A stretch of 64,000 bases of DNA. It comes from Bacteroidaceae bacterium. Its GTDB lineage: Bacteria > Bacteroidota > Bacteroidia > Bacteroidales > Bacteroidaceae. This document shows, piece after piece, positions 31,409 through 60,724 of the stretch. The DNA lies in contig JAZUMZ010000085.1 in the NCBI GenBank assembly GCA_045603885.1, positions 132-64,131 of the forward strand, read 5' to 3'. The position numbers and the translations under genes were made by a program. Below the pieces are notes generated by a model, which ran no database searches, was not told where the DNA came from, and saw only the letters and a list, made by a program, of their open reading frames with translations. Every line of letters starts with the position of its first letter. Within the stretch, counting starts at the first letter, position 1.

Positions 31409-32551
31409 TTCATAAAGATAATAACGACTAAATTTCAACTAAAGGGTACTTCAATAAATTAGCCAGTTTGGCACACCTGCAAAATCCCGTGTTTCCTTTT
31501 TTTTTTACAAAAACATAAACAACACTTTTGTTGATATCAATCTTTTCAAGATTATCGTTTGGCATTGATGGTGACTGCCTGTAAACAAGTTTACGTCATC
31601 CACCATCAACACTAACCGCCGCATTTCATGCTCTGAAATCAACAAAAGCAAAAACAAAAAAACAAGTGGTTCTGTTTTTCTGACAGAACAAACAGTTTTG
31701 TCTTGTCTGATGTTTTCTTGCGATAGCGTGTTTTTGCCTCTTGAAAGTTTTGGTATTCGTGAGAATACGTTTTGATGTTGAAAGGAAGATGGTCTGGTCG
31801 AGGCAGAACTGGACCCTCCTCATAGTTTCATCCACTCTGCCTCGTGCTTTCAATGTAATATTTCTCGTCGGGAACATAGTTATGAAAAATAGGCAAAACA
31901 TCAAAAGGACAGAATTATAATTTTTATTATTTACTCAACTTTCGCAAGTTGCATATAAATGATTCACAAATATATACAGCAAATTTTATACAATGAATTA
32001 TTATAGAGTCTCACAGAACCGACGAACGCAGCAAGTGTAGAGACAAAGCGCGCTTTGGCTATACCTTGCAAGAAGGAGGAAGACAAAAGTCAAATAAAGA
32101 AAATAAAAGAAAAATAGTGACCTTGTCACAATTAAAGTGGAAATAGCAGAAATAGCAACTCTGAATATTTCTAAAGTGCCAAAGGCACGTGATTTTCTTC
32201 CAGACAATTATGTCACGATTGCCTACGGAGAACTTTCTTCGTCTCAACAATGTATAAGCTTAACATTGTATTCTGCTTAACCGAAAGTTTGGACAGAGAT
32301 TATACAAGCTTATCCCAGCACTTGCTACTCCAGCATTTCTTTTATTTCTGCGAGACAAAAAAACATAGAAAAGAACTTGCGAAACTTGAATATACTTTAT
32401 TCTAAATAAAGGTGTAAAGATACCACGATGTTCCCAATAAGCGAGCAATGTTTCAGATTCTCAAATTTGGATGTATTTGAGTCTATATGCTGTTTAAAAC
32501 TCCGAATATTCTGTTATAGACTTTTTAATGCGCAGCAAAGTAGATTTTTAA

Positions 32552-33330
32552 TCAAAGATTGTTCAAAGCCTCTCTGCCCTTATTCATCAAATAGTATGAT
32601 TGCATAGGATGGTTTGGAGTCTCCGGGTATAGCATGTCAATATAACCTGCTTCTATGTTGGGGGTAATATAAGTAGAAACAAATCCTTTCCTGTCCTTAC
32701 GCAGCAGCACTTCCATTAGAACTTTCAAATTGGCACCATTTTCCCCGATTGCAGTTAATAATGTTTTCAACCGTTTCAACTTTGCATCCTCTCGCTTTGA
32801 GGTTGTGGGGGTTGTGGGGGGGTAACTTGTGGGGTTGTATGGTTGTAAGGTTGTATGGTATTCCTTTTGAATGTTACCCAAACGAAAGATGCGTTCTGGT
32901 TGTATTCGGGTTCGGGAAGGTTTGCCTCTCGACAGGCATCCATAATACGACCGACACCGCTACCCCAGTTCTCCAAGAATGTGGTTTTGAAGAGTACGTC
33001 GGCAATGGTTGGGTTCTGTGGAAATGAATGATGCGACTGCTTGATGGTCTCTGTGGTCAACTCCTCTGGGAGATGGCCTGAATTCTCAATCTCAATGCGG
33101 TCATCATAGATGGCGATGCCTACAGAACTGCTTGTGTTGTGGAAAAAACGATGACAAAGCGCATTCGTTAAAGCCTCTCGCAGTGCTTCTGCTGGAACTT
33201 CCAGTTTCTCTTATCTCGTAAAACCAACTATCTTTCCGCTGATTGAAAGGTGTTTGAAGAAGAAAGCCATGCTTGCATCCAAAAGCGTGAAGAAGTTACC
33301 AGTCCGGTATGTAACGACTGAGACTTCAAC
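32552..33330 (-). pseudogene. Decayed gene for a RecG-like ATP-binding protein (AlbA_2/HATPase_c_4 type); 5' part missing, in-frame stop and frameshift
   Basis: Minus-strand translation gives ...VPAEALREALTNALCHRFFHNTSSSVGIAIYDDRIEIENSGHLPEE...ENWGSGVGRIMDACREANLPEPEY. A stop (TR*EKLEV) lies upstream. The frame changes inside the Pro/Thr linker, which is encoded by a GGTTGTG-type repeat with a G7 run at 32816-32822. The C-terminal winged-helix-like part continues in the 32552-32881 frame. Confidence 0.6.
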
Positions 33331-33423
33331 TTCACAAAAAGTGATCAGAAAGAACTCTTAGACAAATTCTGGCAAAGTCAATTTACGAATTTACGAAAAT
33401 ATATCAAAAAAATATGTGAAAAT

Positions 33424-33455
33424 TTTGTTGGTTTCAAAAAAAAATTATAATTTTG
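33424..33455 (+). promoter_or_regulatory. Bacteroidota promoter of island-A operon (-33 TTTG at 33424-33427, -7 TAATTTTG at 33448-33455)
   Basis: Both boxes are present with a 20-nt spacer. The same arrangement is conserved in the second copy at 48582-48612. Confidence 0.6.
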
Positions 33456-33461
33456 CATTTG

Positions 33462-48084: not shown

Positions 48085-48168
48085 TCATCTACATACGCTT
48101 ACCGCCTCCTTTGCTTTTTGTATTTCTAAAGCAACAAGTGTATCTCTCTCTTCGTTGGTCAAACTCAT
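48085..48168 (-). pseudogene. Truncated HEPN-domain gene (only the first 27 codons remain)
   Basis: Its ATG overlaps the MNT stop (ATGA). MSLTNEERDTLVALEIQKAKEAVSVCR* resembles the N-terminus of HEPN partners of MNT nucleotidyltransferases, which are normally ~120-135 aa. Confidence 0.5.
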
Positions 48169-48479
48169 AGTAATACTATTTTATCGTGTTCAACATTTTT
48201 GTAATAAGGCAAAAATGACCATTGACGCCATTGGTGTTTAGTATAAATATGTGGATTTATTTCCTCGCCGATTTCCCACCCCATTTGTCTGAGAGGATAT
48301 GTAAGGTCGTAGTCTTCTGCTGTGAGTTTATTTTTGTCAAGCAAAATCAGCAAATCCCAGTCGGAATTCTTACGAGCGTCACCACGAGCCCTTGAACCAT
48401 AAAGTAACAAAGTGCTATCAGGTGGCAATGTAGTTCTTCCTACAGATTTAATTTTTTCAATAATTTCTTGTTGTCGCAT
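48165..48479 (-). CDS. Nucleotidyltransferase (MNT-type, HEPN/MNT toxin-antitoxin family)
   Basis: LLLYGSRARGDARKNSDWDLLILL matches the GSxxRGxxxxxSDxD minimal nucleotidyltransferase motif. 104 aa. Confidence 0.8.
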   Translation of the reverse strand: MRQQEIIEKIKSVGRTTLPPDSTLLLYGSRARGDARKNSDWDLLILLDKNKLTAEDYDLTYPLRQMGWEIGEEINPHIYTKHQWRQWSFLPYYKNVEHDKIVLL

Positions 48480-48581
48480 CTTCTTATCCTGTTAGTATAT
48501 TATGTAGCAATCGTAAATCATCACTATTATTTCTGCGAAGTTACGAATTTACGGAAACATATCAAAAAAATATGTGAAAAT

Positions 48582-48612
48582 TTTGTTGGTTACAAAAAAA
48601 CTTGTAAATTTG
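48582..48612 (+). promoter_or_regulatory. Bacteroidota promoter of island-B operon (-33 TTTG 48582-48585, -7 TAAATTTG 48605-48612)
   Basis: Same architecture and position as the 33424-33455 promoter within the duplicated element. Confidence 0.6.
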
Positions 48613-48618
48613 CAATCG

Positions 48619-48985
48619 ACTCAGTTAGCCCAATCAGGGTGAGTGGGTTATCTTATTGGTAAAGGACGTTTACGAACGTTATCTTCAACCCTTGAATCTC
48701 GCAAATTCTAAGTAGCAGAAGAAACGCAACCGGAACGTCTGCGTTGGGTGTATTATACCCAGTCCGCAATACACATTATAACATTGTATCTTACATTTAA
48801 TGTGTCAACGGGACTCTCTATGTATAATATCCGCCGGCGTGGGCTGACTCGAGTTGCTTATCCTGCTACAAGGCAATGCGAGAGCCCAAGGGTTGGATAA
48901 GCGAGAAGTAGAGACTCCCACGTCTTTTTCATTCCTTATGTCTAATCGCTGAACCGGGGTGCGCAGCAGTAAAACTCTTATAGCT
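48619..48985 (+). ncRNA. Candidate structured ~365-nt 5' leader RNA, copy B
   Basis: See copy A. The hairpin arms are conserved. Most differences from copy A fall in predicted loops, for example the loop of the (A)CACAUU/AAUGUG(U) stem, which is 17 nt in A and 21 nt of unrelated sequence in B. Confidence 0.45.
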
Positions 48986-49267
48986 ATGAAAAAGATTATA
49001 GTTTTATTGTTGTCTGTATTTATCGTAATAATTCCCATCTTCGGACAGAATCCGTTGGAAAATGCCGTGGTTTCCTATCAGACGGAAGGGCTACAGTTGA
49101 TGATAAAAATTGGTGGCATGCGACTTTCACTTGTAAGAAATGTGGACATCAATCCATATGGAAGTTTAAAGAAAATTAATCTAAATTTAAAGGTTCGTCA
49201 TCAGACTTTTCTTTTAGGGGTTAAATCCCTTAAGAATTGTCTGATGAAGAACTGTTTTGACTATTAA
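48986..49267 (+). CDS. Small secreted protein, unknown function
   Basis: The ATG at 48986 gives MKKIIVLLLSVFIVIIPIFG|Q. 93 aa. First gene after leader copy B. Confidence 0.55.
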   Translation: MKKIIVLLLSVFIVIIPIFGQNPLENAVVSYQTEGLQLMIKIGGMRLSLVRNVDINPYGSLKKINLNLKVRHQTFLLGVKSLKNCLMKNCFDY

Positions 49268-49279
49268 AAGACATGACCA

Positions 49280-49777
49280 ATGAAAAGATTAATATTGTTA
49301 TACTTGTTCAGCATTACCTATATAATTGGAATCCAAGCTCAGGACTCTCGATATGTAGGCACCTGGAAGTGGCATTATGACTCCCCCTATGAGGATGGAG
49401 AAGAAGGAATGCCTCCTCGGGATGAATATATAAAAATAAATATAGAAGATGGAAGTGTATGGATTAGTATTAAAATGGAAGGGAAAGATGGTAATGGGCA
49501 TCCTTTTGTAAGTCGAGAAGAAGCAGAAGATATAAGAGTGAATAGTGATGGTTCCATCTCTTTTAGACGATATATTTGTAAAAAAGAATATGACAACGAT
49601 AAGCAACTTTATCTGACTGTTTGGGACTCTTATACTGTCCGTTATGCTGGAGGGAGACTTATTTCAAATGAAGAAGTCAATGAAGAATCATATTCAGCAA
49701 ATGGAATTTTAGTCAAATCAGAATACCACAAAATGCCTCGGAAGAAAACATATTATAACGAAAAAGATAATTGGTAA
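49280..49777 (+). CDS. Small secreted protein, acidic-Trp C-terminus family, member 1 (lipocalin-like GxW start)
   Basis: Signal peptide ...GIQAQ|D. The mature N-terminus has YVGTWKW, the central block is EYIKINIEDGSVWISIKME, and the C-terminus is YYNEKDNW. Confidence 0.7.
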   Translation: MKRLILLYLFSITYIIGIQAQDSRYVGTWKWHYDSPYEDGEEGMPPRDEYIKINIEDGSVWISIKMEGKDGNGHPFVSREEAEDIRVNSDGSISFRRYICKKEYDNDKQLYLTVWDSYTVRYAGGRLISNEEVNEESYSANGILVKSEYHKMPRKKTYYNEKDNW

Positions 49778-49796
49778 TCAATTATAGAAAATAATA

Positions 49797-50282
49797 ATGA
49801 AGAAACTACTATTATTGCTAATGTTTGCTTTTGAATCTTGTAATCTCTTAGCACAGGATTGTAATTTGTGTGGTACTTGGATAGGAGTGTTTAGAGTATT
49901 TCTAGACGGTGACAACACAACTAAGAGGCTTTATATAGACATTAAAAAAACATATAGGGACAAATATGTTGTTAGGGTTAAAGAAGTATATACATATAAT
50001 GACCAAAGCTCTAAAACATATTATTGGCATGAATGCATGGACGTAAACGCAAATAAAAACGTCATTACGTGGAAAAGTTTCAGTCATCAAATTGATGATA
50101 ATGAGGATGGTGGCTACGAGAAATACTATTATGTATGCACGGCAAGAGTAGATAATGGAATATTGTACTTTAAACAAATGGTTGAAGGTTTTTATTATGG
50201 AAGAAATGGAGAAATAATAGGCGAATATAACCAACCGGCATATCCAACGAAAGAATTATATAAAGACGAAGATAACTGGTAA
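49797..50282 (+). CDS. Small secreted protein, acidic-Trp C-terminus family, member 2
   Basis: Signal peptide ...LLAQ|D. Blocks are CGTWIGVF, then LYIDIKK...KYVVRVKE, then the C-terminus LYKDEDNW. Confidence 0.7.
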   Translation: MKKLLLLLMFAFESCNLLAQDCNLCGTWIGVFRVFLDGDNTTKRLYIDIKKTYRDKYVVRVKEVYTYNDQSSKTYYWHECMDVNANKNVITWKSFSHQIDDNEDGGYEKYYYVCTARVDNGILYFKQMVEGFYYGRNGEIIGEYNQPAYPTKELYKDEDNW

Positions 50283-50300
50283 CAAATATTTTTTGAGTTT

Positions 50301-51110
50301 ATGAAAAGAACCTTAATAACGTCTATTTTTATTTGTTTGTCGTTCATAAATGTAATGACATTATGGTCTTTTAACTCCCATTCATTTACAGGAAAGAGAA
50401 TCAATGTTTTCAGCGAAGTTAATGACGATTGGATTCTTATTGGCGAAGTTTCTTTGTCTAACTATAATTCTGGCTACGAACCAATCACTGCAAAATTGTA
50501 TGTCAGAGAGATTGCTAAGGAACTTATCTATCGGGTAGAATATCAAGGAGCGTTTTATGCTACCAGATGGCATGATGATTCCAAAACATACCATGTAACA
50601 ATAAACGGCAAGACATATAGATGCGATGTGCCTGTCAATTCTACAGAAAATGAAACGGAGAGTGGAAACTCCGCGAAATTCGTTGGTAAGTGGAAGTTAG
50701 GACATCTGGGATGGTATATGGATATATCTTTTAACAATGGCAGATATAGTTTTAATTTAAATCCCGACTTAATAGGAGAGATAGTAGAATTTCAAGAGAC
50801 ATCAAACGGCATCGTATTTACTTATGTAGAAAAGTTTGACAAGCGCCCCGAGTTGAACAGAAAAGGTTGGCGGTATTATTATGATGAACGAGACAACAAA
50901 GCAGACCCTGGCTATCCGACCAGCGGAAGATATGAATACGACAGAGAGGTAGTGTATTATACAGCTTCTATTGCCTTATCAGACAAAGCACCAGTCCGCA
51001 AAATGATAAAGATGCATACTTACTATTACTTGGGAACAGCATTAACCTATGCTGATACAGATACGGATTTTAATATGCCTGGTTTTACTACAGAACTAAC
51101 AAAATATTGA
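50301..51110 (+). CDS. Secreted two-domain protein, unknown function (second half has an FVGKWKL lipocalin-like start; no acidic-Trp tail)
   Basis: Signal peptide present. 269 aa. Ends in ...TELTKY. Confidence 0.6.
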   Translation: MKRTLITSIFICLSFINVMTLWSFNSHSFTGKRINVFSEVNDDWILIGEVSLSNYNSGYEPITAKLYVREIAKELIYRVEYQGAFYATRWHDDSKTYHVTINGKTYRCDVPVNSTENETESGNSAKFVGKWKLGHLGWYMDISFNNGRYSFNLNPDLIGEIVEFQETSNGIVFTYVEKFDKRPELNRKGWRYYYDERDNKADPGYPTSGRYEYDREVVYYTASIALSDKAPVRKMIKMHTYYYLGTALTYADTDTDFNMPGFTTELTKY

Positions 51111-51113
51111 ACT

Positions 51114-51650
51114 ATGAAGAAAATGATTATATTAACCCTTTGTCTACTTTGCGGTTTGTCAGTAGCAACTGCACAAAGTCAAGATCCGTGGGTAGGAACA
51201 TGGACTTCTGAAAGCTACAAGGCATTAGACAGTGAATCAGAAGGACAAGAATACACTAATTATCGGTACGTTATTAGAATCTCAAAAAATGGAGATAATT
51301 ATTTCGTGAGAGCCAAAACTATCAAAGTTGCAGACCCTGAATCAGCAATCTATAATGATGCTTATGGTATTAAAAATTCACAAGCCAAGATTGACGGTAA
51401 TAGAATGCTGGTTGAATCTCGCAGGGAAAAGATTCCATTTTATGTAAATGGACGAGTCGATTCATATTCCAACACAACATCATATTTCGAATTAACGATT
51501 AACAACGGAACATTACATTGTTCTTTTTACAAATATGTAGTTGAGAGTTATGATAAGAATATGAGATATGAATACACTAACACATTTGGCTTACATGAAC
51601 AATATCCCGGCCCATGTGTTGAACGCGATTTATTCAACGATGATTGGTAA
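51114..51650 (+). CDS. Small secreted protein, acidic-Trp C-terminus family, member 3
   Basis: Signal peptide ...VATAQ|S. Blocks are WVGTWTSE, then YVIRISKNGDNYFVRAKT, then the C-terminus LFNDDW. Confidence 0.7.
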   Translation: MKKMIILTLCLLCGLSVATAQSQDPWVGTWTSESYKALDSESEGQEYTNYRYVIRISKNGDNYFVRAKTIKVADPESAIYNDAYGIKNSQAKIDGNRMLVESRREKIPFYVNGRVDSYSNTTSYFELTINNGTLHCSFYKYVVESYDKNMRYEYTNTFGLHEQYPGPCVERDLFNDDW

Positions 51651-51693
51651 ACTTTTTCAGTACATAACAAGGAAAATAAAATAGGATTCAATT

Positions 51694-52230
51694 ATGAGAA
51701 AATATCTATTAACAATTCTGCTTTCATTGCTATGTTTGATTAATGCAATGGCACAAGAACCCGCAATTTGTGGAGATTGGATAGGATTGTATAAAAGCGA
51801 AGCCATTTCAGATGATGTGGATAGTGATGGGAGTAAGTATCTAGTCCAAAAAGATTATAGGCGTTACATTAGAATTAAACTAATAGGTGACAATTACACT
51901 GTTAGAATGAAGACTAGGATTGCGGATGAGAGTTCTCCTTTCACATATTCTCCGGAATGCCAAATTATCGAGGCAAACGACAGAATTATCAAATGGAAAA
52001 TGAATTTGGGACCTTCATACGATTGGAACCCATCAGACAGGCATAAAGGAATACCCATTGGCCATGCTGATTATTATGAATATTGTACTGTTGTGCTTTC
52101 TAATGGAACATTAAAATACTCTGAATATATGTTGACTATCTATTATGATAGACAAGGCCGAGAAATTGACAAACAAAAATGGTTTGAAAAAGATGGCCAG
52201 ACTTTATATAAAGAAGACTCTGATTGGTAA
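51694..52230 (+). CDS. Small secreted protein, acidic-Trp C-terminus family, member 4
   Basis: Signal peptide ...NAMAQ|E. Blocks are CGDWIGLY, then RYIRIKLIGDNYTVRMKTRIADESSPF, then the C-terminus LYKEDSDW. Confidence 0.75.
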   Translation: MRKYLLTILLSLLCLINAMAQEPAICGDWIGLYKSEAISDDVDSDGSKYLVQKDYRRYIRIKLIGDNYTVRMKTRIADESSPFTYSPECQIIEANDRIIKWKMNLGPSYDWNPSDRHKGIPIGHADYYEYCTVVLSNGTLKYSEYMLTIYYDRQGREIDKQKWFEKDGQTLYKEDSDW

Positions 52231-52250
52231 TAAGAAAAAAATCAAGCAAT

Positions 52251-52862
52251 ATGAAACAACTAATTATAATTTCTGTATTATTATTGTCATCACTTTCATC
52301 ATACGCACAATACGATGATGAAATATATACCGTAAATATCACGGGAGCTCCGAGCATTACACTTGACTATATGCGCAATCCTGGAGATATGGATACGCAT
52401 TCTTTCAATCAAGATAACAATCTGGGCACCTATTATCCTGACGACGATGGCGTAATTCGCATAGAATTGTCAAAAGGATACTATCAGTATTTAGTCCATT
52501 GGAATTCACACGGTCCACAAAACGGGAGTTTCTATATAAAAGATAGAAATGTATATTTTGAAATTCGTATGCTTCCTCCCTATTGCAATATAGATACGAA
52601 GAAAACTATTGAGAAAGCATACAGATGTTTGTCTAATAAGAAAAAGAAAGAAGCACGTGAGTTATTCTATATTGCGGCAGAGGCAGGAAATGCCGATGCG
52701 ATGTTTGACTATGCACGAATATGCTGGAATGGTATAGGTGGCGGGAAAAACAAAAACCATGCTTACCATTATATAAATGAAGCATTAAAACATGGGCACC
52801 CATTAGCGGCTACCTATATAGAACATTTTAAAGATAAATACGTTTGGAAATGGTACTTATAA
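52251..52862 (+). CDS. Secreted protein with N-terminal beta-rich domain and C-terminal Sel1-like repeats
   Basis: The ATG at 52251 gives MKQLIIISVLLLSSLSSYAQ|Y; the ORF-track start at 52224 is a TTG. C-terminal SLR block AAEAGNADAMFDYARICWNGIGGGKNKNHAYHYINEALKHGHPLAA. Paralog of 58643-59257. Confidence 0.7.
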   Translation: MKQLIIISVLLLSSLSSYAQYDDEIYTVNITGAPSITLDYMRNPGDMDTHSFNQDNNLGTYYPDDDGVIRIELSKGYYQYLVHWNSHGPQNGSFYIKDRNVYFEIRMLPPYCNIDTKKTIEKAYRCLSNKKKKEARELFYIAAEAGNADAMFDYARICWNGIGGGKNKNHAYHYINEALKHGHPLAATYIEHFKDKYVWKWYL

Positions 52863-52966
52863 AGGCCTGTTTTATGATAACAGCATTAACCGCCATTTCT
52901 GATAGATTATCTATGGGGAAGCCGAAAACCATATAGAGTAGGCAATAAACTAAATAAGTGTTACTT

Positions 52967-53161
52967 ATGGAGAACTTTAAATTATCTAATTTGCGCGAAC
53001 TCTCCACAGAGGAGCAGTTAAACTTGAATGGTGGCTTCGGCTCGAATGCTTCCTGTTCATGCTCTGGATGCAGTTGCTCATGCAGTGAAAAGAGTCCTAA
53101 AGCAACTGTAGATGAGGTCACAGATGGTGCCAAAGAGGCTGTAAAGGATGCAAAGCGTTAA
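52967..53161 (+). CDS. RiPP precursor peptide A (23-aa double-glycine leader + 41-aa core with 5 Cys)
   Basis: The sequence is MENFKLSNLRELSTEEQLNLNGG|FGSNASCSCSGCSCSCSEKSPKATVDEVTDGAKEAVKDAKR. The leader is nearly identical to that of the next ORF. The gene sits directly upstream of the C39-ABC exporter and rSAM genes. The ATG is at 52967; the ORF-track start at 52958 is a GTG. Confidence 0.75.
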   Translation: MENFKLSNLRELSTEEQLNLNGGFGSNASCSCSGCSCSCSEKSPKATVDEVTDGAKEAVKDAKR

Positions 53162-53180
53162 TTCTTAAAAACAGTAACTC

Positions 53181-53411
53181 ATGGATACTTTTAGATTGAC
53201 CAATCTACGCGAGCTCTCAACAGAGGAGCAGCTGCGTATTAATGGAGGCATGGATTCCACTGGTTGTAAAGCAGACTGTGGTGCTTGTACTTGTCCCTGT
53301 AAATGCAATAGCAAGAATCCTTCGAAGTCGGTAGGAGAAAGCAATGCAGATTCTGGCGACAATTCAGCCCTCGCCCAACGTAAAGTTACCGCTGCAATGC
53401 AGTCAATGTAA
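53181..53411 (+). CDS. RiPP precursor peptide B (23-aa double-glycine leader + 53-aa core with 6 Cys)
   Basis: The sequence is MDTFRLTNLRELSTEEQLRINGG|MDSTGCKADCGACTCPCKCNSKNPSKSVGESNADSGDNSALAQRKVTAAMQSM. Confidence 0.75.
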   Translation: MDTFRLTNLRELSTEEQLRINGGMDSTGCKADCGACTCPCKCNSKNPSKSVGESNADSGDNSALAQRKVTAAMQSM

Positions 53412-53414
53412 AGA

Positions 53415-55583
53415 ATGCCTCGATTCCGTATTGTTTACCAGCATGAGCAAGAAGACTGTGGAGCAGCTTGCCTTGCAATGATTTTACGCTTTTATGGCTT
53501 CCAAGTAACATTGGAGGCTATAAAGGCTTTTTGTGGTAACATGAAAAACGGAATAACGATGCTGGGATTAAACCGTTCTGCAAAACGAATCGGCTTTGCA
53601 ACGCAGGCAGTTCGGTTGAATGAAATGGAATTATTCAACTTAGAAGAAAGTCTATGCCCATTCATTGCATACTGGCGTCAAAATCATTTTGTAGTGGTTT
53701 ACAAAATTTCTGCCCAGCATGTTTATGTTGCAGACCCCGCAATTGGTAGAATCCGATACAACAAAAGAGAGTTTCTGGATGGCTTTGCATTATCAGAAAC
53801 CTCCGATGGCTTTGTTTTGCTATTAAAGCCAGAAAACATAAAAAAGGAGACAATACAAGAAGAACAACGAATTGGTATTAACCTACAAGATTACATTAAA
53901 CCTCGGTGGAAGGAGTTAACGTGGACTGTAGTCTCTTTATTAATTCTTTCTGCTATTGGCCTTATCTTTCCTTTTCTTACTCAGGCAGTAGTAGATAAAG
54001 GTATAGCAGAAAAAAGCCCAAGTATCCTGTTGGTTATTTTATGTGCCACGCTTTCATTAACCATAGGACGCGCTCTTTTTAGCTTTCTGCAATCGCGAAT
54101 GACCTTAGTCGCAGGGACACTAATTGATATAGAATTAGCCAATAATCTTTTGGTGAGACTGTCGGCTTTGCCTATGAAATTCTTTGCAGCCCGTAAGGTT
54201 GGTGATATGATACAGCGTGTTTCGGACATTTCTCGAATAGGCGACTATTTCTCCTCACGTATAGCAGAAAGCATTCTTTCAACATTGATGTTCTGCATAT
54301 ATGCCGGAATCTTATTATATTTGTATCCGTTGCTATTTGTTGTATTTATGATAGGAGCAACCTTATATATATCGTACATCCTCCTATTCCTACGCCGTAG
54401 GAAGATTCTTGACTACGAATTCTTTGGTGCTGCTTCAAAATCCCAAGAAGAATTGATACAATACTTACGGGGCATGACTGAATTGAAATTAGCATGTGCA
54501 GAAGATGAGCGCCTGGGTATATGGAAGAAATATAGGTATGAACTTTTTAGCGTAAGCCGTCGAAGCCTTATGCTATCGCAAAAACAAGAATTAGGGAGTG
54601 TCTTTATTTTCCAAGTTGTAGATGCAATCACAATATACCTGATGGCAATAGCTGTGATTGACGGAAATACCACTTTGGGGTCGATGATGGCCGTTCAATA
54701 TATTATTGGGAGCATGGAGAATCCTTTGCACATTGTTACAAGATTTATCCGAGATACGCAAAGTATGCAAATTGCTCTTACGCGTATCAATTATATAGCA
54801 TCGTCAGAACCAGAGAAGAGCGGAAATACTCGGTTCTCCTCACATGACATCCCCCCTTCGATTAAAATAGACAACATAACATTTTCTTATGACATTGATG
54901 ATAATAAACCAGCATTACTAAATGTAAATGTAATTATTCCATCTGGTAAAACGACTGCCTTAGTAGGGATGAGTGGAAGCGGAAAAACAACACTTCTAAA
55001 ACTATTGCTTGGTTTCTATTCTCCCGATAATGGCTCTATTTATGTCAATAATGAAAGACTGTCTGATTTTGATTTGTCAGATTGGCGGAAGTGTATTGGA
55101 GCCGTTATGCAAGATGGATACATTTTTTCGGATACTATTACAAAGAATGTTGCTTTGGGTGATACTAATCCTTCAATTGAAAGGATTAAAGAAGCACTTC
55201 GAATATCGTGCGCAGACTTTGTCTTCGCATTACCCGTCGGATTAAACACCATCATTGGAGCTGAAGGAATGTCACTCAGTATGGGGCAACGACAACGTAT
55301 TTTACTTGCAAGAGCTATTTATAAACGTCCATCTCTTTTTCTTTTAGATGAAGCTACAAATGCTTTGGATGCCATTAACGAACGGCATATATATGAAAAC
55401 TTAAATTCTGAATTGAAGGGGAAAACTGTTGTAATAGCAGCGCATCGGTTGAGTACCATTAGCAATGCTGACCAAATACTTGTATTTGATGAGGGACGTA
55501 TAGTTGAGAGCGGAATACATACGGAACTAATAGAAAAGAATGGCAAATATGCTGAGTTGGTGCGTAATCAGCGTTTCAATTAA
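53415..55583 (+). CDS. Peptidase C39 domain-containing ABC transporter (bacteriocin/RiPP leader-cleaving exporter)
   Basis: N-terminal C39 motif QHEQEDCGAACLAMIL. Six-TM ABC membrane domain. Walker A GMSGSGKTT, signature LSMGQRQR, Walker B LFLLDEAT. Confidence 0.9.
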   Translation: MPRFRIVYQHEQEDCGAACLAMILRFYGFQVTLEAIKAFCGNMKNGITMLGLNRSAKRIGFATQAVRLNEMELFNLEESLCPFIAYWRQNHFVVVYKISAQHVYVADPAIGRIRYNKREFLDGFALSETSDGFVLLLKPENIKKETIQEEQRIGINLQDYIKPRWKELTWTVVSLLILSAIGLIFPFLTQAVVDKGIAEKSPSILLVILCATLSLTIGRALFSFLQSRMTLVAGTLIDIELANNLLVRLSALPMKFFAARKVGDMIQRVSDISRIGDYFSSRIAESILSTLMFCIYAGILLYLYPLLFVVFMIGATLYISYILLFLRRRKILDYEFFGAASKSQEELIQYLRGMTELKLACAEDERLGIWKKYRYELFSVSRRSLMLSQKQELGSVFIFQVVDAITIYLMAIAVIDGNTTLGSMMAVQYIIGSMENPLHIVTRFIRDTQSMQIALTRINYIASSEPEKSGNTRFSSHDIPPSIKIDNITFSYDIDDNKPALLNVNVIIPSGKTTALVGMSGSGKTTLLKLLLGFYSPDNGSIYVNNERLSDFDLSDWRKCIGAVMQDGYIFSDTITKNVALGDTNPSIERIKEALRISCADFVFALPVGLNTIIGAEGMSLSMGQRQRILLARAIYKRPSLFLLDEATNALDAINERHIYENLNSELKGKTVVIAAHRLSTISNADQILVFDEGRIVESGIHTELIEKNGKYAELVRNQRFN

Positions 55584-55604
55584 GGACATTAAAAAGATAA
55601 TCAT

Positions 55605-57218
55605 ATGACTACGAAACATGAAGCCCTGAATTATTTGAAGGAAAACTATCCTTTGGTAAAGATTGTCGATTTTGACACTCTTAGTAAGTTATTTTATGAT
55701 GCGAGAGCACATATGCTATTCGTCGTCGGTGAAGAAGACCTACCTATCATTGCGGATTACCTACGTACTCACGACAAGGCTTTCCTAAACAAAGAATATC
55801 CACATTTCAGTGGCATTGATGGTATTATAGAACGTATAGATGACTTGCAAAACAAAGGCGTACTACTTCCTGGCCCAGTTGAACAACTAATCAGCACTGA
55901 ACCAGACGAAGTATATAAACGAATTGAGTATAATATTGAAAACATATTGATGCGTAAATTCGTACTGGAAACCACACAGCAATGTAATTTCAGATGTCGC
56001 TATTGCCATAACACGCTCGAATCTGTATATCGCCATCATACTAAAAGCCAGATGATGTTTCCTGTTGCAAAAGCTGCGATAGACTTTTACAAGGATATGT
56101 ATTTAAAATTCTACAGACGTCTACCTGATGAGAAAAAGGAATTGTTGCTTAAACATTTCAAGCCTTTTGTTGGGTTTTATGGGGGAGAACCGTCGCTTAA
56201 CTGGAATCTGGTAAAAGAAGCATCAGATTATTTCTTGAATTGTGGTTGGGAGAATGATGGAATTAACCAGAAAGATTTAGAAATATCTATAAATACAAAT
56301 CTATATATCCTAACAGATGACATGATGTCCTTCATATTGTCATATCAACCTCTCTTGTTTGTTTCTCTTGACGGGCCAAAAGAAGATAATGATCGAAATA
56401 GAATAACCGCTGACGGCAAGGGAACATTTGACAAGGTTTATTCTAACTTGATGCGAATAAAAGATGCAGATGAAAAATACTTTAAGGAAAAGATGTTGAT
56501 ATTATGTGTGGAAGCTGAGGGTAATGATAGTAAAGCAGTACATAACTTATTAGATAATCTTGGATGTCCTATAAGCTATTTAAAGGAACAACCATTTGGA
56601 TGTCTTGAACGTGAGCCAGAGAAACAGGTCCAATATTATGATGAGAACGAAGAACGTATGATTAATTCGGTCATCGATAATTATAAACATCGCGCCTCTG
56701 AGAATGATCCCAACGCAATAGAAGAATTTTCTTCATTATATTTTCTGGAAGGAGTTGAAAGTGACACGCCCTACTATCGTCGTCCTATATCAATTAGTCT
56801 CACATGTCCGCTTTGTGTTGACAATATTATGATTGGAACTAAGGGGGAAATGCATCTATGCCATAAGACGGATGGCTCCTTGCCACTCGGAAATGTTTGT
56901 GAAGGTGGGTATGACATGAAAAAAATGTTCGAAGCCTATCAAAGCTATGGAGAGGCAACAAATTGTATAGAATGTCGTAGTTGTTGGGCGATGAATGTCT
57001 GTAGCTACTGCGCAGCCTTGCGTCTTGATGGTGGAAAATGGGTAAATCCCAAACATGAAGAATGTGATTTACAAAGAAGACGTGTCGAATATCTTCTTAA
57101 ACTCTTTGTCGCGATGTATAAGTTAGACCCAACCATCTTGCCAAAACTAATGGAAAGGAAAAGGGATTTGAATATCTATAAGTCTATTGTTGATTTTAAT
57201 TCTTTTGTCAATTTATAA
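55605..57218 (+). CDS. Radical SAM/SPASM-domain peptide maturase
   Basis: CNFRCRYC (CX3CX2C) at aa 127-134. C-terminal auxiliary-cluster Cys motifs CPLC...C...C...CIECRSCWAMNVCSYC. A ~115-aa N-terminal extension precedes the rSAM core. Confidence 0.85.
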   Translation: MTTKHEALNYLKENYPLVKIVDFDTLSKLFYDARAHMLFVVGEEDLPIIADYLRTHDKAFLNKEYPHFSGIDGIIERIDDLQNKGVLLPGPVEQLISTEPDEVYKRIEYNIENILMRKFVLETTQQCNFRCRYCHNTLESVYRHHTKSQMMFPVAKAAIDFYKDMYLKFYRRLPDEKKELLLKHFKPFVGFYGGEPSLNWNLVKEASDYFLNCGWENDGINQKDLEISINTNLYILTDDMMSFILSYQPLLFVSLDGPKEDNDRNRITADGKGTFDKVYSNLMRIKDADEKYFKEKMLILCVEAEGNDSKAVHNLLDNLGCPISYLKEQPFGCLEREPEKQVQYYDENEERMINSVIDNYKHRASENDPNAIEEFSSLYFLEGVESDTPYYRRPISISLTCPLCVDNIMIGTKGEMHLCHKTDGSLPLGNVCEGGYDMKKMFEAYQSYGEATNCIECRSCWAMNVCSYCAALRLDGGKWVNPKHEECDLQRRRVEYLLKLFVAMYKLDPTILPKLMERKRDLNIYKSIVDFNSFVNL

Positions 57219-57463: not shown

Positions 57464-57522
57464 ATTCGTTTTACATATATACAAATATTAACGCGATAGG
57501 TAAACTATAAGAAAAATCAATT

Positions 57523-58053
57523 ATGAGAAAAGTATTATTAGTAAGTTTATTGTCATTAATGAGTTTTATAACGACAATGGCACAACAATCCGCGATATGT
57601 GGGGATTGGATAGGTATTGCTCATGAAGCTGCATTTAAAGAGCATCCAGAAACTGGAAATATGATGAGAGTTGATGAAAAGTTGTATATTCGTATCAAAC
57701 AGATTGATGGGAAGTTTCAAGTGAGGATGAAAACACGAATTGCTGACGAAAGTAGGCCTTTTAATTATCTGCCAGAATGTAAAGTGATTTTTGTGAATGA
57801 CAATGTTGTAAAGTGGTCTCAAGACTGGGGGGGCAATAATGAAGGTAATTTAGGAAAAGAACAAGGTATTGTTGTGGGCAGGGACTCACAAATTGCATAT
57901 TATACAGCTGTATTAACTGATGGCGTGTTACGTCTTTCAGAAAAATATATTATCACCTATTATGACAGGCAAGGGCGAGTTATTACATCTAAAGATTTCC
58001 CTTCTAGTTATTCTAAGGGTGTCACTTTGTACAAAGAAGAGTCTGATTGGTAA
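57523..58053 (+). CDS. Small secreted protein, acidic-Trp C-terminus family, member 5
   Basis: Signal peptide ...TTMAQ|Q. Blocks are CGDWIGIA, then LYIRIKQIDGKFQVRMKTRIADESRPF, then the C-terminus LYKEESDW. Confidence 0.75.
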   Translation: MRKVLLVSLLSLMSFITTMAQQSAICGDWIGIAHEAAFKEHPETGNMMRVDEKLYIRIKQIDGKFQVRMKTRIADESRPFNYLPECKVIFVNDNVVKWSQDWGGNNEGNLGKEQGIVVGRDSQIAYYTAVLTDGVLRLSEKYIITYYDRQGRVITSKDFPSSYSKGVTLYKEESDW

Positions 58054-58068
58054 ACATTTAACTATTCA

Positions 58069-58595
58069 ATGATGAGAAAAGTATTATTAGCAAGTATGTT
58101 GTCCCTGCTTTGTTTGACAACAGCAATGGCTCAAAGACTCGCAATTTGCGGGGACTGGGTAGGAGTTTTTGAGAGTTTTAATATTTTCGACTCCAATGGA
58201 GACAGACATAGAGTTGATGCTAATTATAAACGGTATATTCGGATAAAGTTTATAGATGGCCAATACACCGTTAGGATGAAAACAAGAATAGCAGATAACA
58301 CAGAACCTTTCAATTATTGGTCAGAATGTCAAATAATAGAAGCTGACAACAGACAGATTAAATTGAAAATGGATTTAGGCCCTGAATAGGATTGGTCTTC
58401 AGACTCAAGACATAAAGGAATACAAATTGGTCATGCCGATTATAATATGTTTAACACAGAACGCTATTAAATGGAACATTAAAGTATTCTGAGTATATGT
58501 TGACCACATATTTTGACAGATTTGGTAGAGAAATAGACAGAGAGTACACATATGACAAAGAGCATTTGTTATACAAAGATGAAGATGATTGGTAA
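58069..58595 (+). pseudogene. Acidic-Trp C-terminus family, member 6, inactivated (in-frame TAG at 58387 plus a frameshift near 58450)
   Basis: The first 106 codons align with member 4 (CGDWVGVF...RYIRIKFIDGQYTVRMKTRIADNTEPF). After the TAG the homology continues (DWSSDSRHKGIQIGHADY). It then shifts frame (NGTLKYSEYMLTTYFDRFGREID...LLYKDEDDW*). Confidence 0.7.
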
Positions 58596-59257: not shown

Positions 59258-59474
59258 ACAGTTTTGCATAATGTATGCTTTAAATACAAAAGAATGAATG
59301 AAGACTGTTTGATTGCTTCGGGAATTCGTGTGGTAATTCCTATGCTTTTGCCCTTGCTGGGCGATGGTTTATCTTTACACTATTACCCTGAGGTGTCCTG
59401 AGGGCTTAGAAAGCATTAGCCTTTCAGGCAGCTGAACACGAAATAATACAAGATTCCCGAAACAATGCCGAGGG

Positions 59475-60724
59475 TTAGACATTATCCCACCTGTAGCAAT
59501 AGGGTTCAAGTATTTTGTGATTAATCTGTAACTCAGAAGCTGTTTTGCGCCAATCATTTATGGCGTCACGAACCTCGTCAATTATCTCAGTTGCGACCTC
59601 CCTCTCAAGCATATAGTATTCGCTTGCAGCGAGTAAGACATTTATGTCCGACTCTTCAGTGTATGCATCGATGAGCAAACACTGGTTAGATTTAGCCCCC
59701 GGATTGATGTCATAGGCAGGAGAGAGTGTCCAGCCTTTCGGGGTAAGCAGGAAGCCGTGATTGCGAAAGTGGTCATCAGTGTTGCCGAACATGATGTTGA
59801 ATGCCACTCTTCTATATAGTTCTCTGAGATTTTGGTGTACACCAGTGCAACCATGAAGTATGAAATCCACTATATCCAGATAACCATTGCCAGTGTTGCA
59901 TCCAGCTCCATCGTCAAGCCCAAGCAACGACATAGCTGAAGCAAAATGGATTCGATGTCCATCCTTTGTCCTGTCAAAACGCTCAGAGAGCAAAAGGTCG
60001 CGGTCTTTTGCAATCTTAACGGTTCGTGTCTTTGCCACCTTAATCCCGGCTTTGGCCGCAAGTTGATGAGAGAAATGTTCAATGAGCTCTGTATTCTCAA
60101 GGTCCTTTTTTGACGGAAATTTAGCCACATACAGTTTGCCATCGGTATCAACAATATTAGCCTTGGGACGCGCACCATCGAGCGAGGTTCCCGGGTCAAT
60201 CAGCTGATCAAGCCACCGTTGTTGAGGCAATTCGTTTCGTTCCTCCGCCAACTCGATCTCGTGACAGGCCTCACACAATCACGCAGACTCTCAATTGGAG
60301 GGACATGGTGTTTCGTACTTGCGTTGATGTAGCTATCGCTGTTTTCCTCTTTGTAACGTATGCCGCCCATACGAGTGAAGTCCTCAATACCGATAAGGTA
60401 GTCAAAGTCAGTGAGCATACGTTTCGGCCTCCTTTCTGCTTGTGCAGTCAGCCGCTCTCTGCGGTCAAGCAACAAACCTCCCCAACGGTCAGGGAAAGAA
60501 TCCTTGATGAAGCCGAAAACATTATCACTGCCGCGTGGATGCTGCAACGAGGGGACATTCATAAGATCACCGCTTAGAAGAATGCCGCCATACTGTTTCA
60601 GCCAGTCATTCGAAAACTCAAAGAAAAAATGGTCTTTGCCACGAACGTGTTCGTAGCCTAATATTCCTATTTCCATCGGGGAAGAGAGGAAATCAAAATC
60701 CGCACAAACTATTATTCTTTTCAT
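59475..60724 (-). pseudogene. hipA: HipA-family kinase toxin gene, frameshifted
   Basis: The N-terminal HipA domain ORF (60200-60724) and the C-terminal kinase ORF (59475-60278: GTSLDGARPKA...NTDDHFRNHGF) overlap in different frames. The frame changes near 60255-60285. Confidence 0.7.

Follow-up and report, generated by a model that had tools for sequence, protein, structure and literature searches.

Covariation supports a previously undescribed family of ~300-nt leader RNAs upstream of accessory operons in Prevotella and Bacteroidaceae

A 64,000-nt stretch of contig JAZUMZ010000085.1 from a Bacteroidaceae bacterium (assembly GCA_045603885.1, forward strand positions 132 to 64,131; hereafter the window) carries two copies of a non-coding repeat, copy A and copy B, each ending at the start codon of an operon. 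Comparison of the two copies with homologs from metagenomes and metagenome-assembled genomes (MAGs) leaves little doubt that the repeat encodes a real structured cis-leader RNA of ~300 nt, and that it represents a Prevotella/Bacteroidaceae family that has not been described previously. It is likely that the leader acts in cis on the operon downstream, where it probably determines whether genes for secreted proteins and peptide antibiotic-like products are transcribed. As to how, we tentatively infer a factor-dependent transcription attenuator, a mechanism to which we give somewhat less than even confidence.

Copies A and B share a leader and its promoter

Alignment of positions 33300-33900 with 48460-49060 showed that copies A and B are ~90% identical from 33380 and 48538, respectively, to the start codons at 33823 and 48986. 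The flanks are unalignable, the upstream DNA and the interiors of the open reading frames (ORFs) being unrelated. An initial annotation of this DNA had described copy B as a folded leader resembling copy A, and it located copy B correctly; the similarity spans 48538 to the ATG at 48986. As a Bacteroidetes-type promoter, of the -33/-7 kind described for Segatella/Bacteroides, sits within the repeat, the transcribed leader would be ~370 nt long (Table 1).

Including copies A and B, 13 distinct homologs were found; the 11 further ones come from metagenomes and MAGs (Prevotella/Bacteroidaceae), and homolog loci are referred to below by L numbers. At every homolog locus the sequence TAnnTTTGCA lies a few bases 5′ of the conserved RNA and the DNA farther upstream diverges. 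The upstream TTTG is kept in all homologs except L005, which has CTTG. One locus, L009, has a 30-nt insertion between the -7 box and the first hairpin of the leader (1640-1681, locus on the minus strand), and this insertion is itself a hairpin (GAUGCGAUG...CAUCGCAC).

Homologs support a single long rod

The supported architecture consists of a 5′ hairpin (P1) and one long, unbranched closed rod, made up of the closing helix, helix 2, helix 3, P3, P4, P5, P6-P7 and P8-P9, with an apical hairpin at its tip. A covariance model (CM), R1, was built from nine sequences and comprises 259 positions and 72 pairs, with no branch point. R1 recovers the non-seed leaders L018 (154 bits) and L020 (47 bits), and its plus-strand matches score 150-284 bits compared with 14-20 bits for the reverse complement. 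In the CM alignment of 13 sequences 95.6% of cells are paired, and double changes occur at 29 of the 72 pairs (89 cells). None of 500 shuffles reached any of the five measures used, and slid controls gave 37-49% pairing with at most 13 doubly changed pairs.

Because the CM alignment is fitted to the model, a MAFFT alignment was used as an independent check. RNAalifold on the MAFFT alignment of 10 sequences returned 13 pairs with double changes. All seven P3 pairs are compensated in this alignment, in 3-6 sequences, and none is broken; P5 (GUAGCGG/CUGCUAC) emerges as a second covarying long-range helix, with a coordinated 1-nt deletion in L009. P1 was analysed on the MAFFT alignment only, and pairwise column covariation without helix context was too noisy for use. 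Single-sequence minimum free energy (MFE) folds of copies A and B reproduce the covariation-supported architecture, with MFE z-scores of -6.0 (copy A) and -5.9 (copy B) versus -3.9 for the opposite strand.

Conservation is uneven along the rod. P3, P5 and the apex are saturated with change, yet their pairing is kept, whereas the distal half of the rod is nearly invariant including its bulged bases, and a 44-nt block within the distal core is identical in copy A, copy B and L001. Columns that never vary make up 22 of the 65 unpaired and 50 of the 142 paired ones. The changes seen in P7 all preserve wobble pairing, six pairs covary in P8/P9, and three P4 pairs are compensated in L018, L027 and L020 (CUUCGCA/UGCGAAG and UCUUGCA/UGCAAGA). 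The length of the apical hairpin varies from ~0 to 100 nt between homologs; L005 and L027 have a short loop in its place.

The initial annotation had argued for a folded RNA from copies A and B alone, on the grounds that their differences fall in loops, that hairpin arms are identical and that the sequence between them drifts. The folded leader is strongly supported by the 13 homologs, and all of the listed arms and differences are present as given (GUCAG/GUUAG, UGUCAA/AAUCA, an A-to-G change, and loops of 17 versus 21 nt), with the one exception that in helix vi the segments AGG and GCAA overlap by one G (AAGGCAA). The confinement to loops is only partly correct. The apical hairpin does hold 26 of the differing columns (26/64, compared with 5/64 in other unpaired positions), but 14 differences lie in paired columns, where the annotation missed a compensatory signal. 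These 14 touch eight pairs, all of which stay paired, six of them by double compensatory change. When RNAalifold was applied to copies A and B alone, two of the blocks thought to drift were found to pair with each other (UCUGAUGUAG/CUACAUCGGG in copy A and UCAACCCUUG/CAAGGGUUGG in copy B), with six compensatory double changes; this is the strongest evidence within the two copies.

In covariation on the 13-sequence alignment, the structure as originally drawn was indistinguishable from shuffles: it yielded four double changes, a value reached by 23 of 500 shuffles. Its first hairpin corresponds to P1, the inner stem of which holds; the outer stem is 64% paired as drawn and 91% paired in a register shifted by a few bases. 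The apical hairpin (helix v) was drawn correctly. U-to-C and G-to-A changes that preserve P7 disrupt helix iii in 4-5 homologs, and helix iv is absent in L005 and L027, its bases covarying with their P8/P9 partners instead. For the long-range helix vi, pairing in the outer part reaches only 75% and the 3′ arm of that part is a strand of P4 (100% paired, three compensated pairs), while the inner hairpin would cross P5, where seven of seven pairs covary. A leader peptide was also considered and rejected: the 26-codon ORF of copies A and B loses its ATG in L001, L006 and L011, and a 1-nt deletion frameshifts it in L001-type copies.

A local hairpin and the closing helix share one strand

Hairpin ii of the initial annotation, GGACGUU-UACG-AACGUU, is 100% paired in the 13 homologs, but it is an alternative to the closing helix, the 5′ strand of which it shares. 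For each homolog two transcripts were folded, one truncated after the P3 3′ strand and one comprising the full element. Hairpin ii is present in the MFE fold of the truncated transcript in 12 of the 13 homologs, and in all 13 it is displaced by the closing helix in the full-length MFE fold; forcing it in the full-length fold costs 0.5-5.8 kcal/mol. The partners in the closing helix change in step (GGACGU/ACGUCU, GGCGU/AUGCC in L018, GGCGU/ACGCU in L020 and AGAAGCGU/ACGUUUCU in L026), and each variant of its 5′ strand also retains its local partner. At least five U residues directly follow the nine pairs of the closing helix in 12 of the 13 homologs. The earlier suggestion of an attenuator at this U-tract is still plausible; however, L018 and L005 break the weak local hairpin that had been proposed ahead of the U-tract, and this hairpin was therefore rejected as the terminator.

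A further hairpin, module 2, lies between the U-tract and the start codon, and was identified in 10 sequences (copies A and B, L005, L006, L008, L011, L018, L020, L024 and L027). Its stem, GCY(G)...(C)RGC, covaries (GCU/AGC versus GCC/GGC). As module 2 is conserved past the U-tract, the leader would work as part of the mRNA, and termination, if any, would be partial. A CUCCC bulge at the base of the rod is complementary to the GGGAG-type loop of module 2, and a pseudoknot between them is tentatively proposed: CUCCC/GGGAG duplex energies are weakly better than those of shuffles, and L020 has AACC/GGUU.

Distribution and diverged members of the family

A 23-mer from the most conserved block matched one MAG in a collection of species-representative genomes (L001, Bacteroidaceae bacterium Tb.RUG.277), and a second 23-mer matched nine metagenome contigs (L003-L011). 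The copy-A lipoprotein has homologs in Prevotella sp. MAGs that fall into 120 clusters, and the contigs of these homologs gave the diverged leaders L018, L027/L028, L020/L022 and L024, as well as a miniature leader, L026, in Prevotella sp. GCA_017620085.1. Exact-word searching thus misses diverged members, since L018, L020, L026 and L027 were reached only by the protein route. Plasmid and phage collections contained no match to the leader, and three scans of viral contigs returned a single match, a chance one in a high-GC phage (L002). Searches of the window with nhmmer and with the CM found no third copy, and both methods missed the miniature L026 and the L012-type leaders described below.

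Several metagenome contigs end inside the leader (L020-L025), as assemblers break at repeats; stretches of 46-75 nt in which copies do not differ are the probable cause of the assembly breaks at these loci. The contigs of L020, L022, L023, L024 and L025 begin at position 1 inside the leader. L025 encodes a protein 99% identical to that of gene A1; the exact sequence of the A1 protein is not on record.

The miniature leader (L026:2120-2340, JAFZRC010000142.1) is ~175-220 nt long with a z-score of -5.5. It keeps the rod, the closing helix AGAAGCGU/ACGUUUCU and the U-rich tail, and its P7 is capped directly by a UACG tetraloop (GCUCACGC-UACG-GCGUGGGC), which suggests that the distal extension from P8 to the apex is dispensable. 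A different leader of ~330 nt precedes homologs of the copy-A lipoprotein at L012:2665-2990, and also at L013 and L014, with a TAnnTTTGCA promoter of its own. Its architecture is likewise that of a 5′ hairpin and a closed rod (AGCUUGAGAA/UUCUCAAGCU and GCACUUUACC/GGUAAAGUGC, z = -6.1), and its apex, CACGCC-UUAU-GGCGUGG, resembles the GGCGUGGGCU core. Possibly, then, the L012-type leader belongs to the family as a very distant member.

Downstream operons and genomic context

All 13 copies are co-oriented with the next gene, and in 12 of the 13 loci an ORF on the same strand starts 28-73 nt past the element. No -7 box (TAnnTTTG) lies between leader and ORF in these loci. The operons behind the leaders are long (7-10 kb) with intergenic gaps, and scans of both window operons for terminator and promoter consensus sequences gave chance levels. 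The cargo differs between loci. The first gene encodes a small LytTR protein in L001, L003 and L007 and an outer-membrane protein (OMP) barrel in L005, and L006 and L008 carry CXXX-repeat peptides with TIGR04115/TIGR04119 maturases. The lipoproteins of copy A and L011 are 28% identical, though their leaders are nearly the same (282 and 273 bits); either the RNA is far more constrained than the cargo, or leader and cargo have recombined. At L006:2975-3060 the first ORF aligns with the CXXX-repeat peptide gene of L008 and stops after nine codons, perhaps as a pseudogene or through misassembly.

Table 1 Features of the leader copies and operons in the window (window coordinates)
Feature	Position	Strand	Remarks
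Copy B promoter	48582..48612	+	TTTG (-33) 48582-48585; spacer 19 nt; -7 box TAAATTTG 48605-48612
P1, 5′ hairpin	48618..48649	+	GACUC/GGGUU outer, AGCCC/GGGU inner; MFE; outer 91%, inner 95% paired in 10 homologs
Closing helix, 5′ strand (AAAGGACGU)	48661..48669	+	Pairs with 48920-48928; 95.7% paired (helix 1)
Hairpin ii, GGACGUU-UACG-AACGUU	48664..48680	+	Proposed anti-terminator; local alternative to closing helix
P3, 5′ strand	48684..48694	+	Hypervariable long-range helix; pairs with 48887-48897; 9/11 pairs doubly changed, 94% of cells paired
P4, 5′ strand, UCUCGCA	48697..48703	+	Pairs with UGCGAGA 48877-48883; 100% paired
P5, 5′ strand, GUAGCAG	48712..48718	+	Pairs with CUGCUAC 48863-48869; double changes at 7/7 pairs
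Distal core P6-P9, 5′ half	48726..48758	+	Near-invariant; pairs with 48822-48857 (GUAUAAUAUCCGCCGGCGUGGGCUGACUCGAGUUGC); helices 8 and 9 96-97% paired
Apical hairpin	48759..48821	+	Variable length; ACACAUU 48771-48777 / AAUGUGU 48799-48805; in MFE
Rod 3′ strands, P9 to helix 3	48822..48903	+	
Unpaired CUCCC bulge	48915..48919	+	Three invariant C; complementary to GGGAG-type loop of module 2
Closing helix, 3′ strand (ACGUCUUUU), and U-tract	48920..48929	+	U-tract 48925-48929
Module 2 hairpin, GCUG-AACCGGGGUGCG-CAGC	48948..48967	+	Between U-tract and start codon
Copy B operon	48986..57218	+	Small secreted proteins, Sel1-like protein, two GG-leader Cys-rich peptides, C39 peptidase/ABC exporter, radical SAM/SPASM maturase
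Copy A promoter, leader and module 2	33424..33822	+	Same parts as copy B; other operon downstream (33823-40933)
Copy A promoter boxes	TTTG 33424-33427; TAATTTTG 33448-33455	+	Bacteroidetes-type
Copy A closing helix and U-tract	33505-33513 with 33758-33766; U-tract 33763-33768	+	
Copy A operon	33823-40933	+	Lipoprotein, OMP beta-barrel, four unknown secreted proteins, DUF5106/thioredoxin-like, Sel1

The window is otherwise ordinary chromosome, with adk, obg, ispD, ribH, nadE, a GH2 enzyme, a TonB receptor and gdhA; no tRNA was found in it. Its source is an uncultured organism known from metagenomes only. Toxin-antitoxin or defence genes often neighbour the leaders. Nucleotidyltransferase (MNT-type) genes lie directly upstream of the leader at two unrelated loci, window 48165-48479 (minus strand) and L026:1468-2107, the latter accompanied by a HepT partner; this fits with leader operons lying in variable, toxin-antitoxin-rich regions. 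The ~2 kb upstream of copy A (31409-33380) have no long ORF, and overlapping minus-strand fragments there (32552-32881 and 32776-33060) resemble a frameshifted regulator or ATPase-type gene; the stretch is probably a decayed gene adjoining the island.

Behind copy B, a family of small secreted proteins without a Pfam match is arranged in tandem (49280-52230) and recurs after the radical SAM gene (paralogs at ~57502-58561; repeat families D1 and D6). Four of these proteins end in D-x-W (DNW, DNW, DDW and SDW). The sole Rfam hit in the window is a DUF805b RNA at 52912-52944 (plus strand; 44.1 bits, gathering score 35.6). It lies in the radical-SAM cluster, where the first GG-leader Cys-rich peptide gene (52967-53161) begins 23 nt downstream of it, and not beside a DUF805 gene. 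A second shared non-coding stretch of ~150-190 nt (40240-40392 and 59330-59522, plus strand; 84% identity over the best 95 nt) is found near the 3′ end of both leader-driven arrays, and in the copy B array overlaps the last codons of a HipA_C gene (59475-60278, minus strand). It could be a gene remnant or a common 3′ boundary of both islands.

Discussion

If the leader is a factor-dependent attenuator, hairpin ii would form first during transcription and sequester the 5′ strand of the closing helix. Hairpin ii could then be unzipped once transcription has completed the 3′ side of the base of the rod, allowing AAAGGACGU to pair with ACGUCUUUU just before the U-tract, so that a terminator-like closing helix would span the whole rod and hairpin ii would act as the anti-terminator to it. 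A trans factor, either a protein or a small ligand, might recognise the invariant distal core and tip the near-isoenergetic balance of the two states, and this balance would determine how much transcription reads through into a regulon of scattered accessory operons for secreted proteins and ribosomally synthesised and post-translationally modified peptides (RiPPs).

Several observations weigh against this attenuator model. A terminator stem formed by a long-range helix that closes ~250 nt is unusual, and a standard terminator consensus scan, confronted with such a long-range stem, reports nothing at the leader. L005 has only three U residues after the closing helix. The closing helix and hairpin ii covary weakly, mostly through wobble-compatible one-sided changes with one double change each, and the CM alignment, being fitted to structure, is biased toward it. 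The conserved RNA of module 2 extends beyond the U-tract, where a complete terminator would make it pointless. No candidate trans factor is consistently encoded beside the leaders.

The element belongs to no described family. Rfam 15 (4227 models), searched over the whole window at the gathering threshold, contained no family for the leader, and Rfam in E-value mode on copies A, B and five homolog loci returned only noise (E >= 0.49, far below the cut-offs). By analogy, it appears to work most like a terminator/anti-terminator leader, of which riboswitch and protein-dependent attenuator leaders such as the T-box and SAM-I expression platforms are examples. Like these, it is a long 5′ leader transcribed from a promoter of its own, its core is conserved and sensor-like, one of two mutually exclusive helices abuts a U-tract, and the operon would rely on read-through. 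Here, however, the fold is an unbranched rod, and the putative terminator stem is the closing helix of the whole 250-nt fold instead of a local hairpin. Literature searches, on structured leaders of Prevotella/Segatella and on the core sequence, found no matching description, though unnamed candidates from bulk screens could overlap (PMC8040213).

A different kind of elongation control deserves consideration, in which the folded leader or a paused complex modifies RNA polymerase so that the long operon is transcribed to its end, as in processive antitermination or elongation-factor loading (cf. EAR, put and the NusG paralogs LoaP and UpxY). Long accessory operons of 7-10 kb, interrupted by gaps between genes, would suit such a mechanism, a core that is invariant in sequence points to a macromolecular partner, and the U-tract could be the first terminator bypassed. 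The nearest system in the phylum is that of the UpxY/opsX leaders, which control elongation into Bacteroides capsular polysaccharide operons (PMC11685472); like the element described here they are leader-encoded, open long accessory operons and have several paralogs in one genome. In the capsule operons, a locus-specific NusG paralog (UpxY) and UpxZ come first, and the signal lies in non-template DNA together with a short pause hairpin (PMC11685472), whereas the present element is a 300-nt covarying RNA fold and the first genes behind it encode a lipoprotein, small secreted proteins, LytTR proteins, an OMP barrel or CXXX peptides; no NusG/KOW paralog opens any of these operons. The EAR element of the Bacillus eps operon and HK022 put are processive antitermination RNAs. 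As a class they resemble the present leader in being structured RNAs that open a long exopolymer or secreted-product operon, but EAR and put are much smaller and have other folds, and neither EAR nor another family gave an Rfam match. Terminator-like sites inside the operons are also not above chance, and we regard this explanation as improbable.

To a similar degree we doubt that the rod is simply a structural 5′ cap or processing element, which would set mRNA stability by shielding the 5′ end of the message or by serving as a substrate for RNase III or some other double-strand-specific nuclease. A nearly continuous imperfect duplex of ~70 pairs at the mRNA 5′ end, with an A/U-rich start region that stays unstructured, is what such an element would look like; yet stability needs structure and not sequence, while the invariant columns counted above persist across divergent cargo, and the bistable pair of hairpin ii and closing helix and the U-tract would be left unexplained. 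Less probable still is a stand-alone small RNA (sRNA) of ~300 nt that ends at the U-tract and either acts in trans or targets a protein, as a 6S-like decoy would, with downstream genes expressed by leakage only. The leader has its own promoter, and its rod shape, with 5′ and 3′ ends joined by a closing helix that is followed by a U-tract, recalls many stable RNAs, including 6S and Bacteroidales-1 RNA. However, 6S RNA is a single-copy stand-alone RNA with a central open bubble, whereas this RNA is multicopy, with two copies in 15 kb, each joined to an operon with differing cargo. No hit to 6S or Bacteroidales-1 (RF00013/RF01693) was obtained with Rfam, the leader is always co-oriented with a downstream ORF 28-73 nt away that has no promoter box of its own, and module 2 is conserved beyond the proposed end.

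Two further explanations were weighed. A transcribed palindromic repeat of the miniature inverted-repeat transposable element (MITE) type, comparable to Correia or ERIC elements, could have spread in the genome with an outward promoter and no dedicated regulatory role. The leader is indeed a multicopy, intergenic, co-transcribed imperfect palindrome that carries a promoter, with two copies 15 kb apart, located in variable regions beside toxin-antitoxin or defence genes; contigs end inside it as expected of repeat-caused assembly breaks, and the leaders of copy A and L011 are nearly identical despite cargo proteins with 28% identity. Against spread of this kind, orientation and spacing relative to the next gene are the same in all 13 copies, neither terminal inverted repeats nor target-site duplications were seen, the similarity starts at the promoter and stops at the ATG, and no match was found in plasmids or phages. 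The many G-U pairs of this strand-specific fold, together with the tenfold lower reverse-strand score, argue for selection on RNA and not on DNA ends, and the contrast between P3, P5 and the apex, which are saturated with compensated change, and a core with divergence near zero argues for purifying selection and not recent spread. A MITE-type origin is a slim prospect. Bacteroidetes use invertible promoters, and at the DNA level the rod is an inverted repeat, which could be read as an invertible segment, a cruciform or a single-strand promoter. This was rejected as having next to no likelihood, since the arms differ between copies and pair largely through G-U, a mismatch in DNA, and the strand asymmetry is strong. 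No recombinase gene lies nearby, the context is chromosomal and housekeeping, and the opposite orientation of the 190-bp segment was seen in none of the 13 loci.

Beyond attenuation, it is possible, although we consider it doubtful, that the leader represents a new sensor RNA class, either a riboswitch or the target of a dedicated RNA-binding regulator, in which the closing helix that spans the aptamer doubles as the terminator stem. Such a sensor would coordinate scattered accessory operons for radical-SAM Cys-rich/CXXX peptides, bacteriocin-type exporters and surface lipoproteins in rumen and gut Prevotella, with L026 and the L012-type miniatures as distant members sharing only the CACGC-loop-GCGUGG apex. 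The downstream genes offer no metabolic clue to a ligand.

Few structured bacterial RNAs exceed 250 nt, covary strongly and still lack an assigned function, and earlier finds of this kind have opened up new biochemistry. The leader would provide a clean test case of an unusual design, a terminator made from the closing helix of a 250-nt fold, and its covariance model can be used to find and join loci where leader repeats break metagenome assemblies. The family appears limited to Prevotella-type Bacteroidota, a group that dominates the rumen and many human guts and whose genetics are poorly understood. The operons behind the leader encode secreted proteins, or radical-SAM-modified peptides together with bacteriocin-type exporters, and the leader is thus a candidate master switch through which these bacteria would control surface remodelling or competition with other bacteria.

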